The notes under the pieces are model-generated. The model was given only the letters and a program-made list of their open reading frames with translations. It ran no database searches and had not been told where the DNA came from. From Octopus vulgaris (Eukaryota), in contig OX597843.1 in NCBI GenBank assembly GCA_951406725.2, forward strand, positions 17,794,001 to 17,858,000: a stretch of 64,000 nucleotides of DNA. Reading direction: 5' to 3'. Made by a program: the position numbers and the translations under genes. Numbering within the stretch: position 1 is the first letter of the stretch; every line of letters begins with the position of its first letter. This document shows positions 19,323-54,024 of this stretch, one piece after another.

Positions 19323-19948
19323 ATGGTTCCGGGTTCAGTCCCACTGCGTGGCACCTTGGGCAAGTGTCTTCTACTGGCCGACCAAAGCCTTGTGAGTGGA
19401 TTTGGTAGACGGAAACTGAAAGAAGCCCGTCGTATATATGTATGTATATACATATGTATATATATATACGTAATTTTAGCGGTTCTAAAATTAATAAGTT
19501 TCAAAATAAATTCCTTTCTAGAAGGTACTGGAATATCCTTCAATGATGAATTCCAAATGAATTAATCTTATGTATTGGCTTAAGTTTTTCATTGTATGAT
19601 TTGCCTAATAGTGGTTTTATCTCTAATTTAATATAATATAATATAATATATATATATATATATATTTCAACAATTGAGGGTAAAATTAATTAATTAATCA
19701 ATTTTACCAAGTATTCAGTATACAAAGGGACCATTTAAGGCGAATTCAAATTATTACATTATATAAAAGGGCTTAGTAAAATAAATTACTTTGCCGCATA
19801 CTGAACTCATTAGAAATAGCAGCTAAAAAAACTTTTTCAAAAACTATTTCCAATACTTAAAGAAAAACTCTCTCATATAGTGTTTGCTCAATTCAACTCA
19901 CAAAAGTATGGGGGTAGAGACATTAAAAAATCAAATGCAAAGGTTATT

Positions 19949-20001
19949 TGAGAACGTACGTTTCAAGATTAGTCAAAATCGACACTTCTATCATCAGCTC
20001 A
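19949..20001 (-). ncRNA. Type I hammerhead ribozyme, canonical core
   Basis: tgag CTGATGA t-aga...tct-t GAAA cgtacg TT ctca. Confidence 0.8.
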
Positions 20002-20542
20002 GAACTCCCTGGTTTGGATTTGAAAACACTGAAAGTGGGAGCATACCCTTTCGGCTTGTTATCACTTCAGAAGATCTGCTCAAAACTAACAGTGCCAGCA
20101 AATTCAAATATGCAAGCGAAGAATTTCTGCTCTCCCCTTTCCACCAGCGTGGGTTAAAATCAGCAAACACTATGCTTTTTTCGGTAAAATCCGAGGCATT
20201 ATATAGAGAGATATGAATTATAAGTTCAACAATTGAGGGTAAAATTAATTAATTAATCAATTTTACCAAGTATTCAGTATACAAAGGGACCATTTAAGGC
20301 GAATTCAAATTATTACATTATATAAAAGGGCTTAGTAAAATAAATTACTTTGCCGCATACTGAACTCATTAGAAATAGCAGCTAAAAAAACTTTTTCAAA
20401 AACTATTTCCAATACTTAAAGAAAAACTCTCTCATATAGTGTTTGCTCAATTCAACTCACAAAAGTATGGGGGTAGAGACATTAAAAAATCAAATGCAAA
20501 GGTTATTTATTAGGTTGTTTTCAAATCCAAACCAGGGAGTTC

Positions 20543-20595
20543 TGAGCTGATGATAGAAGTGTCGATTTTGACTAATCTTGAAACGTACGTTCTCA
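20543..20595 (+). ncRNA. Type I hammerhead ribozyme, canonical core
   Basis: Identical to 19949-20001 in the opposite orientation. Confidence 0.8.
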
Positions 20596-21102
20596 AATAA
20601 CCTTTGCATTTGATTTTTTAATGTCTCTACCCCCATACTTTTGTGAGTTGAATTGAGCAAACACTATATGAGAGAGTTTTTCTTTAAGTATTGGAAATAG
20701 TTTTTGAAAAAGTTTTTTTTAGCTGCTATTTCTAATGAGTTCAGTATGCGGCAAAGTAATTTATTTTACTAAGCCCTTTTATATAATGTAATAATTTGAA
20801 TTCGCCTTAAATGGTCCCTTTGTATACTGAATACTTGGTAAAATTGATTAATTAATTAATTTTACCCTCAATTGTTGAAATTATAATTCATCTCTCTCTA
20901 TATAATGCCTCGGATTTTACCGAAAAAAGCATAGTGTTTGCTGATTTTAACCCACGCTGGTGGAAAGGGGAGAGCAGAAATTCTTCGCTTGCATATTTGA
21001 ATTTGCTGGCACTGTTAGTTTTGAGCAGATCTTCTGAAGTGATAACAAGCCGAAAGGGTATGCTCCCACTTTCAGTGTTTTCAAATCCAAACCAGGGAGT
21101 TC

Positions 21103-21155
21103 TGAGCTGATGATAGAAGTGTCGATTTTGACTAATCTTGAAACGTACGTTCTCA
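21103..21155 (+). ncRNA. Type I hammerhead ribozyme, canonical core
   Basis: Identical copy exactly 560 bp after 20543. Confidence 0.8.
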
Positions 21156-21338
21156 AATAACCTTTGCATTTGATTTTTTAATGTCTCTACCCCCATACTT
21201 TTGTGAGTTGAATTGAGCAAACACTATATGAGAGAGTTTTTCTTTAAGTATTGGAAATAGTTTTTGAAAAAGTTTTTTTAGCTGCTATTTCTAATGAGTT
21301 CAGTATGCGGCAAAGTAATTTATTTTACTAAGCCCTTT

Positions 21339-21375
<37 letters not shown>

Positions 21376-23935: not shown

Positions 23936-24098
23936 AATATTAGGGAATAAATCCAAATTTACAGGGAAAAATCAGATTTAGGATTGAATCCAATTTTATA
24001 GTAAAATATTATATTATATTAAATTAGAGACAAAACCACTATTATGCAAATCAAACAAAGAAAGACTTAAGCCAATACATAAATTAATTTATATAAAT

Positions 24099-24425: not shown

Positions 24426-24499
24426 TTACATAAGAATTTTAAGAATATGTTTTATGTTTTTCATTGTTTGATTTGCCTAATAGTGGTTTTATCTCTAAT

Positions 24500-24569
<70 letters not shown>

Positions 24570-26367: not shown

Positions 26368-26550
26368 ATATGTGTATATATATATATATTTATATATATG
26401 TATATATATGTGTGTGTATATATATTTATATATAAAATTATAAATTAGGGTACTACGTGCATGTATATGTATGTATACGTTCGTATATGTAAGTATTCGT
26501 ATGTTGTATTTATATATATATATATGTATTTATGTTTCTTTTCTGTGTGT

Positions 26551-26609
26551 ATTCTACTGACGAAGCAAAGCATTCCTAAATGCAAAGTCAGAAATCCAGG
26601 ATCTAGAAT
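26551..26609 (+). ncRNA. Type I hammerhead ribozyme, canonical core
   Basis: attcta CTGACGA ...gcatt/aatgc... GAAA tcc-a-gga TC tagaat; stem II base weak. Confidence 0.7.
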
Positions 26610-27060
26610 TATCCAGTAATTTTTTACTAGTTTCATCTTGTCTCTTTGTTTTCTCTCCGTGTTGATATATGGACAATTAAGGTGGTTTTAGAGTCAGATC
26701 TTGGCTGCTATTTTCAGCATGGCGGTACCTCGTAGAAACCCTAATTTATAATTTGAATAATTACTACCACTTGATAAAATCGTTATTTCATTTTAAATTA
26801 ATGATCTTATCCTTATATATATATATATATATATATAAACAAATCAAATTGCGATAAAATAAAAATAATTATAATCGCTGGTATTACTAACACAAGCCAT
26901 ATATTTTTCATATATCAGTACATTAAGGCGAAATATGTGCTAGGAATACAGAAGCTTGATAAATTAAGTGAAATGAAGATAAAAACATTTACTAAACCGG
27001 TAATTCTCAGACTGCAGTTTCTTTCTTTTCAGCAATAAAGATAATTTATTTGCTCAGGGA

Positions 27061-27118
<58 letters not shown>

Positions 27119-27304
27119 GCGGTTTTTTTAATTTTTATTAAAATTTTATGTATTGATTAAGTCTTTCCTTGTTTGTTTTACAAAATAGTGGTTTTGTCTC
27201 TAATTAATGATATATAATATGTTATTATAAAATTGGATTTTATCCTAAATCTGATTTTTTCCCTGTAAATTTGGATTTATTCCCTAATATTTATTATTAT
27301 TATA

Positions 27305-32207: not shown

Positions 32208-32285
32208 ACCGGCAGTTTAGCTTAAAGGTAAAGCATTTGACGCGTAATCAAAGGGACGTGAGTTCGAGTTTCCTGGCTAGCCGGT
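32208..32285 (+). pseudogene. tRNA-like sequence (pseudogene or SINE head)
   Basis: TAGCTTAAAGGTAAAGC D-arm-like, TTTGA-7nt-TCAAA anticodon-like arm, GAGTTCGAGT T-loop-like; T stem imperfect. Confidence 0.5.
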
Positions 32286-36303: not shown

Positions 36304-36378
<75 letters not shown>

Positions 36379-36600
36379 ATAAATAAGGATAATATCGATA
36401 TTATCAAGTGGCCAGTATGGGAAAGAATACCATACAAAGGTAATAATTATTTACAACTAAAAATAAGGGTGTCTGAGAGACACCACCATGCCGAAATAGC
36501 AGTCAAATCCCTGACTCTAAAAACCACCTTAAATGTTCATATCGCACCATGAGATAAGACAGAGGGACAAAATAAACTAGCAAAAAGATATTACTGAATA

Positions 36601-36659
36601 ATTCAAGATCCTGGATTTCTAGCTTTGCTTCAAATAAGCTCTGCCGTCATCAGTTGAAT
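36601..36659 (-). ncRNA. Type I hammerhead ribozyme, canonical core
   Basis: attcaa CTGATGA c-ggc..gctt/aagc..gct-a GAAA tcc-a-gga TC ttgaat; diverged homolog of 26551. Confidence 0.75.
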
Positions 36660-51098: not shown

Positions 51099-51297
51099 TA
51101 TATCTGTGTTTCTCCCCACAACATCACTTGACAACCGATGCTGGTGTGTTTACATCCCCGTCACTTAGCGGTTCGGTAAAAGAGACCGATAGAATAAGTA
51201 CTAGACTTACAAAGAATAAGTCGTGTGGTCGATTTCCTCGACTAAAGGCGGTGCTCCAGTATGGCCACAGTCAAATGACTGAAACAAGTAAAAGAGT
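50458..51297. mobile_element. SINE family 1 copies (50458-50853 minus, 50979-51297 plus)
   Basis: Family match. Confidence 0.85.
50925..50961 (-). ncRNA. Decayed copy of the U3-A8 HHR family (G12 to A)
   Basis: cta TTGAAAA a gttgc-aagac-gcaac AAAA at TT tag. Confidence 0.45.
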
Positions 51298-51313
51298 ATA
51301 TATATATATGTTG

Positions 51314-54024
51314 CTATGTACATCCGTGAGGACCTCACACCCCAGGTCCTTTTGTCATACTCAAATTCGGTCTGTGACACACTAATTGTACATATAAGGC
51401 AACTTGGTGTAGTTATATGTGCTACATATCGCCCTCCAGATGCCCCAAGCCATGCAGACAAGTTTGAAGACTGCCTTATAAAAATAGAAGTTCTAGTCAC
51501 ATTTGAACAACACATAAGTGTACTTCTTATGGGAAACTTCAATCTACCCAATGTCAGATGGTCCGAGGGCCTTTCTCTCTCAGGAATGACACGATGCGAA
51601 CGAGGACAGGCGAGGTCCCGCCTGAACCTCATCAATACTCTGTACATGGAGCAAGTAATACTCCAACCAACCAGGGCAGGTAACATACGGGATCTCTGCT
51701 TCACAAATAATATGGATCTCATCCATAATGTGAAAGTGACACCGACACTACTCTCGGATCACAACATGGTAGAGCTGACCATGTACGGGCAAAAGGAAAG
51801 CATGGACATGCAACCTACAAGAAACTCTCAGAATCTTTCTAGCTTTAACTTCCATAACGCAAACCGGAAACAAATTGAGAAAGAGATCCTCAAACAAAAC
51901 TGGCCTGAATGTCTCTCCTCGCCAGACAACGACATGAAACTTCAACAATTCATGTCTGTAATGCAAGCCATATGCTACAAATGTGTCCCAGAGAGAAAGG
52001 CCACTGTACACATGAACAAAATCCCCAGAGAGAGGAAAATTCTAATGAGACGGCGTACAAAAGTTTCAAATCGCCTAAACAAACAAACTGAAAGCAGTGA
52101 AAATTCCCGCCTGAAAATAAAGCTGTTGGAAATTGAAAAATGTCTGCAACTCTCACATGAAAAAGAAAGAGCAGACAAAGAAGCCTGGGCCGTAGACAAC
52201 ATAAAATCTAACCCCAGAGCTTTCTACAGGTATGCCAAAGAAACAGCTACGGTGCACTGTAGGATAGGTCCACTCCTTGAAAAGGATGGCACACTCACAG
52301 GAAATCCAATGAGGGTAAGTGAAATACTAAATGAGCAATTCAAGAGCATTTTCAAGTCAGCAATCCAACTGACTTCTTTACCACTGCAGATATAAAATCA
52401 GAGGCAGCGATGATTGATTACATCAATATAAAGGAAGACGATGTAATAAAGGCTATAGATGAAATGAAAACAAACTCAGCCCCGATGGATTCCCGGCAAT
52501 CCTTCTAAAAGTATGTAAGAGAGTCCTAGCAAGACCACTGCAGTTCCTCTTTCAGAGCTTCTTTGCAACTGGCAAACTTCCAAGTAAACTGAAGGAAGGT
52601 AAACTATGCCCTATTCATAAAGGAGGTAGCAGAACGGAGGCCAAGAACTACAGACCTATCTCTCTGACCTCACACATCAGCGAGGTCATGGAACGAATAG
52701 TCAGAAGGAAACTAATCACCTTCCTTGAAGAAAATGACTTACTGCCTGACACCCAGGAAGAAGCTGCTTAACTCAACTCCTACAACACCATGACTGGGTG
52801 CTGAAACGACTGCTCAACCACTCAAATGTGGAAGTCATATATTTCGACTTTGCAAAGGCCTTTGATAAAGTCGATCATGGAATGATATGTCACAAACTGT
52901 GTGATCTTGGCATAGTTGGAAAATTGGGAGAATGGCTTCATGACTTTCTGAAGGATAGAAGTCAGGTGGTAGTAGCCAATGGGGCCACTTCCATTAACAC
53001 GCAAATAGTGAGCGGTGTTCCGCAAGGCACTGTTTTAGGACCACTACTGTTCATAATGGCAATACAGAACCCTGAAGACACTAAGCACCTGCAATGTGAG
53101 CTGGACAAAATATACAAGTAGGCTGAAAAGAATAGCATGCAGTTCAATGCTGAAAAGTTTCAAGCTTTATGCTATCAGCATGCAAAACTAAATGCAATAC
53201 CCAATAAATACACTGGACCTGGAGGGATTGCAATCCCAGAGGCACAATCAGTGCGAGACCTGGGTATTTACATGAGTGATGATGCAACCTTTCATGTGCA
53301 TGTTGCTAAATTGGCAATGAAATGTAGGCGGCTGACCGGATGGATTCTTAGAACCTTTAGAACAAGAGACCAAGAAACCATGATGGTCCTCTGGAGGACA
53401 CTTATCCTAAGCCACTTTGATTATTGCTCTCAGCTATGGTCACCATCCAGTGTCAAGTTAATCACAGAACTTGAGGCGATCCAACGAAGCTACACGAAGA
53501 AGATAGCCTCTGTGCAGCATATAAGCTACTGGGAAAGACTCAAGAGATTAAAACTCTATTCCTTGGAGCGTAGGCGAGAAAGATATGCCATAATATACAT
53601 CTGGAAGATCCTGGAAGGACTTGTCCCAAACTTTGGCATCGAGAGTTACACAAATGCCAGAACTGGGCGCCACTGCGTGGTGCCAAGGACTCCAAATTTG
53701 CCATCAAGATGTAGGACAAGATACTGTGATAGCCTGGGCTTCAGAGGCCCACAGCTCTTCAATATCCTCCCGAAGAACCTGAGGGACCTGCATGGGGTGG
53801 ATGCGGATGTCTTTAAAGTAGGACTGGATCTCTTCCTGTCAGGTGTCCCAGATGAACCAACTTCACGGCAGGAGGTGCAGATGAGGGCAGCTACATCGAA
53901 CTCTCTCATGCACCAAATGGCATTTGCTAAAACGCATTCGTGAAGTAAAATCATGTAGCAACACCAAATTGCGGTGCCCCAGCATGGTCACAGCTCGTGA
54001 GCTGAAACTAGATAAAATAAAAAA
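51314..54024 (+). mobile_element. CR1/L2-group LINE ORF2 (APE endonuclease + RT), frameshifted, 5'-truncated
   Basis: YRPP, MGNFNLP, PTRAGNIRDL, SDH; NYRPISL; YFDFAKAFDKVDH, SGVPQGTVLGPLLF (YADD region deleted); RDLGI, DYCSQLWSP, LE.IQR; conserved 3' tail. Confidence 0.92.

Follow-up and report, generated by a model that had tools for sequence, protein, structure and literature searches.

The inverted repeat lying at positions 19666-21345 of the window (the whole stretch of 64,000 nt of Octopus vulgaris DNA that was analysed) is a young insertion of a dispersed, non-coding, non-LTR retrozyme with a predicted ribozyme, probably written into a (TA)n tract by the enzyme of a Penelope-like element (PLE) from a putative circular monomer. 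The designation "PLE-mobilised retrozyme" can be given with good confidence, and a circular RNA template is favoured at somewhat better than an even chance. Assignment of the 560-nt unit to the non-LTR retrozymes is based on tandem type I hammerhead units, the lack of protein and LTR, low GC, dispersed copies and a highly self-paired monomer; mobilisation by a PLE is based on the 5'-truncated copy in inverted orientation and the one-sided tail, present in 30 of 30 two-armed loci, and on the (TA)n targets (70 of 70 outer arm ends).

Organisation of the locus and its hammerhead motifs

The reference unit (window 20592-21151, plus strand) has a GC content of 0.34 and no LTR. It occurs in two arms of ca. 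1.5 units each that abut 5' to 5' over a 7-nt spacer, with (TA)n on both sides. When compared to this unit, the right arm displays one 1-nt gap and the left arm two substitutions and two 1-nt gaps, with a unit spacing of 559. The near-identical tandem copies that the earlier note saw on both arms of a head-to-head inversion are borne out by these few differences, with one correction regarding the tandem: the unit is indeed repeated but only ca. 1.5 times per arm, and both hammerheads of the tandem pair belong to the right arm, the left arm carrying just one. The features of the locus are as follows.

19624-19664, no strand: AT-rich/(TA)n tract at the B end, coming after the end of another dispersed repeat (19557-19645)
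19666-20508, minus strand: left arm, unit 4-560 and then 1-290; its outer end is site B
19949-20001, minus strand: type I hammerhead motif of the left arm, same letters as the plus copies; predicted cut after 19953 on the minus strand
20509-20515, no strand: 7-nt spacer joining the 5' ends of the arms
20516-21345, plus strand: right arm, unit 485-560, a full unit and unit 1-196; its outer end is site A
20543-20595, plus strand: hammerhead motif 1, with a 4-bp helix I, U.U at the base of helix II, palindromic helix III and GUU; predicted cut after 20591
20592-21151, plus strand: 560-nt monomer as predicted between the two cuts; z of -5.5 for its circular fold versus 25 shuffles
20716-20876, plus strand: conserved three-helix element, ca. 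70% identity among sister families
20785-20799, plus strand: site A (unit 194-208), AU-rich and unpaired in the consensus fold; exact mapping of 32 of 35 A-type ends
20879-20885, plus strand: site B (unit 288-294), directly 3' of the last hairpin; exact mapping of 32 of 35 B-type ends
21103-21155, plus strand: hammerhead motif 2; predicted cut after 21151
21346-21373, no strand: (TA)n tract at the A end

The dispersed repeat ending at window 19557-19645 supplied the (TA)n tract targeted by the insertion; the end of this repeat, abutting (TA)n, is also found at 24006-24092, 24452-24518 and 27142-27220. The three longest stop-to-stop frames of the unit (111, 84 and 76 aa) have no Pfam match at E<=0.1, in agreement with the absence of a recognisable protein noted before.

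The three 105-nt stretches surrounding the hammerhead motifs of the window are the same letter for letter, which upholds the claim of three identical ribozymes, and the predicted cleavage after 20591 and 21151, at plus-strand sites 560 nt apart as had been proposed, agrees with hammerhead anatomy. The motif is of type I and is composed of helix I UGAG/CUCA, the core CUGAUGA, GAAA, A-CGUACG-U and the triplet GUU; helix II starts with a U.U and helix III consists of two pairs around a palindrome. The hammerhead descriptor has one match in the real unit versus 1 in 2,000 dinucleotide shuffles. Rfam yielded no hammerhead in the unit, either at the gathering score or at E<=10 (8 weak unrelated matches at the latter), so that the assignment rests on the descriptor and on covariation. 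Indeed, helix I reads UGAG/CUCA, CAUG/CAUG, UACG/CGUA and UGAG/CUCG in the four families described below, the sequence varying while the pairing stays.

The local minimum-energy fold of the isolated hammerhead stretch is no better than that of shuffles (z 0.9), and the GUU triplet, the U.U and the 4-bp helix I suggest, as judged from sequence, a weak ribozyme. A cis dimer of hammerheads through the CGUACG palindrome is plausible on energetic modelling, with a calculated -9.8 kcal/mol for the duplex of ACGUACGU versus +2.4 for the hairpin. The palindrome is retained as CGCGCG in one sister family and helix III is non-palindromic in another. A palindromic helix III has been described as a route to dimer action (PMC4209133). 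The axolotl retrozyme ribozyme HHR_Amex2, which that of the unit resembles in its 2-bp helix III and U.U at helix II, is reported to cleave to 22% as a monomer and more as a dimer, and to form circles (PMC7229834); for dimers of Xenopus retrozymes, in vitro cleavage is reported in just 1 of 9 (bioRxiv 2026.07.22.740005).

No sequencing run on record as RNA contains the stretch of the unit. Assembled contigs of three runs guessed to be RNA (X1, X5 and X9) and of a fourth run whose kind is not stated (X15) account for every one of the 29 bins of 20790-21340 and include unit-to-(TA)n junctions at site B. These contigs are silent on strand, ends and circles, and none of their listed pieces spans the cut site by 31 letters per side.

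Insertion footprint across the family

A search of the genome (2.8 Gb, 227 contigs) with the unit gave 1,740 candidates, of which the best 40 were scored and all examined, the window included. These 40 loci are located on many contigs; since they are the best-scoring ones and mutually related, all p-values given below are optimistic. They contain from 1.3 to 16 units each with a mean divergence from the majority of 1.0%, and a dispersed family of such arrays without protein fits the young retrozyme-like element that had been proposed.

Among the best 40 loci, 30 are two-armed and 10 one-armed. Every two-armed locus (30 of 30) combines an arm that terminates at site A with an arm that terminates at site B. 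(TA)n borders each of the 70 outer arm ends, of which 35 lie at A and 35 at B, and with such even usage an independent choice of ends would give A+B throughout with a probability of ca. 1e-9. The A ends map to unit 194-208 in 32 cases, one further mapping having halted early at a substitution and two ends lying at 166 and 177; the B ends map to unit 288-294, also in 32 cases, with two halted at substitutions and one (L037) assigned by eye. The interval between A and B corresponds to a tail of ca. 95 nt. Inner arm junctions mostly display 0-4 nt of overlap or a few inserted bases, and the positions of the inner stops along the unit show no significant departure from uniformity (70 arms, KS p=0.39). 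Blast had placed 6 of 70 arm stops at the cut site, an apparent surplus that was discarded, exact mapping leaving 3 of 70 within 15 nt, among them the window's left arm (unit 4), with ca. 1.9 expected by chance. Throughout the 40 loci, the unit continues into another copy of itself and never into the sequence of a different element. Because this footprint recurs, the inversion is the normal product of the family and no accident of the locus or of its assembly: what had been viewed as a peculiarity of one locus is a regular feature, and general misassembly of the array, which the earlier note had raised, is excluded, since 29 other loci are organised in this way too.

Target duplications are clear in two of the 40 loci (L053 and L055), the other long matches being simple or shared repeats; as a control, 10 of 200 control pairs reach 12 nt. 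The duplication is of 24 nt in L053, and in L055 (G000:C13:30271000-30277000) it is found in both flanks with ca. 43 non-repeat bases. In the latter, ca. 24 nt of (TA)n occur between the duplicated target and the A end and none after the right-hand copy; judging from this one locus of the 40, some (TA)n may arise during insertion.

Sister families were detected via the tail region and correspond to F2 (592-594 nt), F3 (602 nt) and F4 (562 nt), all non-coding and 55-63% identical to the unit with homology over the entire length, together with a 92% variant. Each of F2, F3 and F4 has a type I hammerhead. When 30 F2 loci were examined, A+B was found in 11 of 13 distinct two-armed loci; the two others have one arm ending elsewhere, and A+A or B+B occurs in none of the 13. 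The most conserved part of the four families is the three-helix element: site A falls in an unpaired segment of it and site B immediately after its last hairpin. In 14 related sequences, 97% of the cells of this element are paired versus 36-48% when it is slid. Covariation in the tail is modest, with 4 of 27 pairs altered on both sides, a count reached by 118 of 500 shuffles. The element is likely to be the recognition site of the reverse transcriptase. Circular folds of five monomers have z values of -5.4 to -8.1 (25 shuffles each), that of the linear unit being -4.9. Searches following the tail led solely to further non-coding sisters, and no match to a PLE protein was found beside the F2-F4 tails except for two unrelated neighbours.

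Copying template and competing explanations

Segments of one locus diverge by 0.69%, opposite arms by 0.45% and different loci by 1.65%. At positions with a coverage of at least 3, 94 variants are fixed in a locus, 27 are partial and 136 single; 22 fixed variants (coverage 3 or more) are private or rare and often occur on both arms. There are 37 haplotype strings in the 40 loci, a count partly due to coverage, and no indel occurs at any of the 140 cut-site junctions, of which 131 are exact and 9 differ by one substitution. With one haplotype per locus and indel-free junctions, each insertion seems to have been copied from one unit that was read repeatedly without scars, which is the expected product of a ligated circle.

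Inherited variants avoid the ribozyme (0 of 41, versus 15 of 130 singletons; p=0.023) and, more broadly, the ribozyme together with the tail element (5 of 41 versus 55 of 130; p=0.0003), and pair-breaking changes are likewise rarer among them (9 of 41 versus 57 of 130; p=0.016), the singletons in these comparisons possibly including assembly errors. Partly shared variants are found e.g. in L032, L042 and L052, some of them in neighbouring units, and the 27 partial variants are evidence of some homogenisation at a later stage or of mixed templates. In L032, L034 and L065, the inner units of an arm have partial variants in common with the arm opposite, as though sequence had passed between the inverted arms after insertion.

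By analogy with described PLE insertions, the two-arm inversion with A+B ends points to PLE machinery, and the following course of events may be proposed. Tandem transcripts would cut themselves, probably as a double hammerhead via the CGUACG palindrome, and a host ligase would close the monomer. A PLE reverse transcriptase/GIY-YIG protein would then bind the three-helix element and nick both strands of AT-rich DNA, one DNA end priming at A and the other at B, each aided by a few AU bases matching (TA)n. Each cDNA would circle the template for 0.1 to 15 turns and stop at random, after which the two cDNAs would be joined into arms that abut 5' to 5' and differ in length; where only one end was extended, a one-armed copy would result (10 of 40). 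In its fullest form, which we put forward tentatively and hold somewhat short of an even chance, the insertions would record the action of one dimer of a PLE enzyme that primed both cut strands on one and the same RNA circle, using two obligatory, different sites on either side of a conserved RNA structure. The circles would form an old lineage with at least four members, whose ribozyme and fold are under selection in each copying round, and would be the minimal substrate explaining both PLE inversion and the tail at exactly one end.

Other templates have to be considered. Two-site priming by a PLE might take place on an uncut linear multimer issued from existing arrays, which would later grow or be homogenised at the DNA level, the ribozyme acting rarely or only in trimming ends. 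Uncut RNA is reported as the main substrate of a purified PLE, cleavage being dispensable (PMC11167929), and Li et al. favour local amplification of pLTR-derived repeats (bioRxiv 2026.07.22.740005). The indel-free junctions and uniform inner stops fit an uncut multimer equally well, and the 27 partly shared variants, some in neighbouring units, are in its favour. However, rare or private variants that are fixed in all units of a locus (22, often on both arms) need a one-unit bottleneck, singletons outnumber partial variants (136:27) and the ribozyme is avoided by inherited variants, and we regard this alternative as unlikely, although it is the likeliest of those to the circle. Ribozyme selection and one haplotype per locus would also be accounted for if the template were a cut linear monomer and the enzyme, on reaching its 5' end, repeatedly jumped to a 3' end, either that of this monomer or that of a different one. 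The arms stopping within 15 nt of the cut site, including the window's left arm, could be read in this way, but their number (3 of 70) is near the chance expectation of 1.9 and none of the 140 junctions has an added or lost base, which makes jumping on a cut monomer improbable.

Two further explanations dispense with the retrozyme itself. The unit could be merely the terminal repeat (pLTR) of a coding PLE and the loci its truncated insertions, a view favoured by the partial tandems, inverted 5' copy and tail that characterise PLEs (PMC8557442, PMC3846280). This is largely refuted, and very improbable, since the unit wraps onto itself in all 40 loci with arrays of up to 16 units, the four families are homologous over the whole unit, and the F2-F4 tails have no PLE protein beside them save for the two unrelated neighbours mentioned above. 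A DNA-level satellite, a fold-back element or an assembly artefact carrying a chance ribozyme-like motif would suit the palindromic build and the lack of an Rfam match. This is hardly credible in view of the unequal arms with two fixed, different end sites at 30 loci, of a descriptor that matches 1 in 2,000 shuffles and of the covarying helix I. The circular monomer copied by a PLE enzyme is thus retained as the preferred reading. Finally, a plant LTR retrozyme, with type III hammerheads in two LTRs and a 4-bp target duplication, is excluded by the type I topology and the tandem units.

Penelope-like elements of the genome and described systems

The unit has no reading frame for RT and GIY-YIG, as an autonomous PLE would, and a helper was searched for in the genome. 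PF01541 (GIY-YIG) gave 6,136 candidates, the best 150 of which were scored, and 52 loci from the PLE searches were compared with the unit. An autonomous RT/GIY-YIG family of 781 aa (L100-L109) has two end sites, 40 nt from each other and both bordered by (TA)n, and displays A+B in two of two two-armed loci. This active family has a second, upstream frame of up to 479 aa with no significant Pfam match, and a pattern search found no canonical hammerhead in its terminal repeat; comparison with viral contigs gave no relative of the 781-aa protein and is uninformative. A second family (L240, L241) has expanded very recently: it accounts for 9,522 candidates, all 150 of those scored being identical over 107 aa, and has an open frame of ca. 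1,200 aa and (TA)n ends in both copies examined. A minimal hammerhead-like motif occurs in it ca. 130 nt ahead of the (TA)n end.

No sequence common to the unit and either family was detected by blastn or nhmmer, nor was any for the PLE groups L110/L112/L116, L111/L115, L114 and L119, and among the 52 loci (150 of 6,136 GIY-YIG candidates scored) there is no coding partner with the tail element. Matches to the unit in L077, L096 and L113 were rejected as a link to a helper since they are separate sister insertions. In the group L110, L112 and L116, the hammerhead likewise has a U.U at the base of helix II; the core of L110 reads CCGAAGA and L112 runs ca. 30 nt past the end of L110.

As in the accounts of metazoan non-LTR retrozymes (PMC7229834; bioRxiv 10.64898/2026.07.22.740005), the unit is non-coding, tandem and of low GC with one type I hammerhead each, occurs as dispersed monomers to multimers, has a strongly self-paired monomer and resides in a genome containing PLEs. 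Monomers are of 560-602 nt here, versus 170-400 in the 2020 invertebrate set (PMC7229834) and 51-972 in the 2026 set. The regular two-arm inversion, the fixed A+B ends and the conserved structured element set the present family, known from DNA, apart from retrozymes as described there. With GIY-YIG PLEs (PMC11167929, PMC8557442, PMC3846280, PMC4209133) it shares the inverted 5'-truncated copy, the tail at one end, AT-rich or microsatellite targets, a hammerhead upstream of the ends and two internal start sites; unlike them, it has no reading frame, a tail of ca. 95 nt instead of 30-40, and arms that are multimers of one short unit. The element works like a PLE passenger and not like an autonomous PLE. 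Chlamys non-autonomous elements such as MRC1 (PMC8557442) are also described as non-coding PLE passengers with multicopy head-to-tail insertions, but the MRC1 group is said to lack canonical hammerheads and to have a 3' end resembling its helper, whereas no similar-ended helper was found for the unit among the 52 loci compared.

Insertions of PLEs are described as partial tandems adjoined by a 5'-truncated copy in inverse orientation, one of the ends bearing a tail of 30-40 bp (PMC8557442, PMC3846280), and the purified Poseidon protein is reported to nick AT-rich DNA, for which it has a preference, and to extend both strands, two internal RNA start sites delimiting the tail (PMC11167929); the origin of the inverted arms and one-sided tail is called open in both PMC8557442 and PMC11167929. 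Mobilisation of retrozymes by PLEs was proposed in 2020 (PMC7229834) and argued from phylogeny in 2026 (bioRxiv 10.64898/2026.07.22.740005), and according to the review PMC7761336 animal retrozyme repeats have no conserved motif that would hint at their helper. The prior case for the mobility of animal retrozymes was their co-occurrence with PLEs and likeness to PLE terminal repeats; here, the insertions themselves bear the PLE footprint and a conserved structure marks the start of copying. A 560-nt non-coding RNA with two mapped start sites and an A+B rule offers a direct in vitro test, including that of the circle as template.

Retrozymes are a class already known. What we have not found described is the PLE insertion footprint on retrozymes, the strict A+B pairing, the ca. 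95-nt tail, the conserved priming element and selection on the ribozyme between rounds of copying. Literature listings yielded no paper on retrozymes and twin priming, none on inverted retrozyme insertions and no retrozyme description for octopus or cephalopod hammerheads. The term "inverted" has no relevant use in the available main text, as distinct from the supplements, of PMC7229834, of the 2026 preprint and of the review PMC7761336.

Other repeats were observed in the window. Two copies (77% alike) of another short element are located at 26549-26810 (plus strand) and ca. 36370-36657 (minus strand). This element ends in (TA)n and contains a motif similar to a hammerhead as well as a segment like the first part of the tail element; the copies are probably more distant relatives. 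A weak tRNA match at 32211-32283 is probably SINE-derived, and frames at 51292-53940 presumably resemble LINE fragments.
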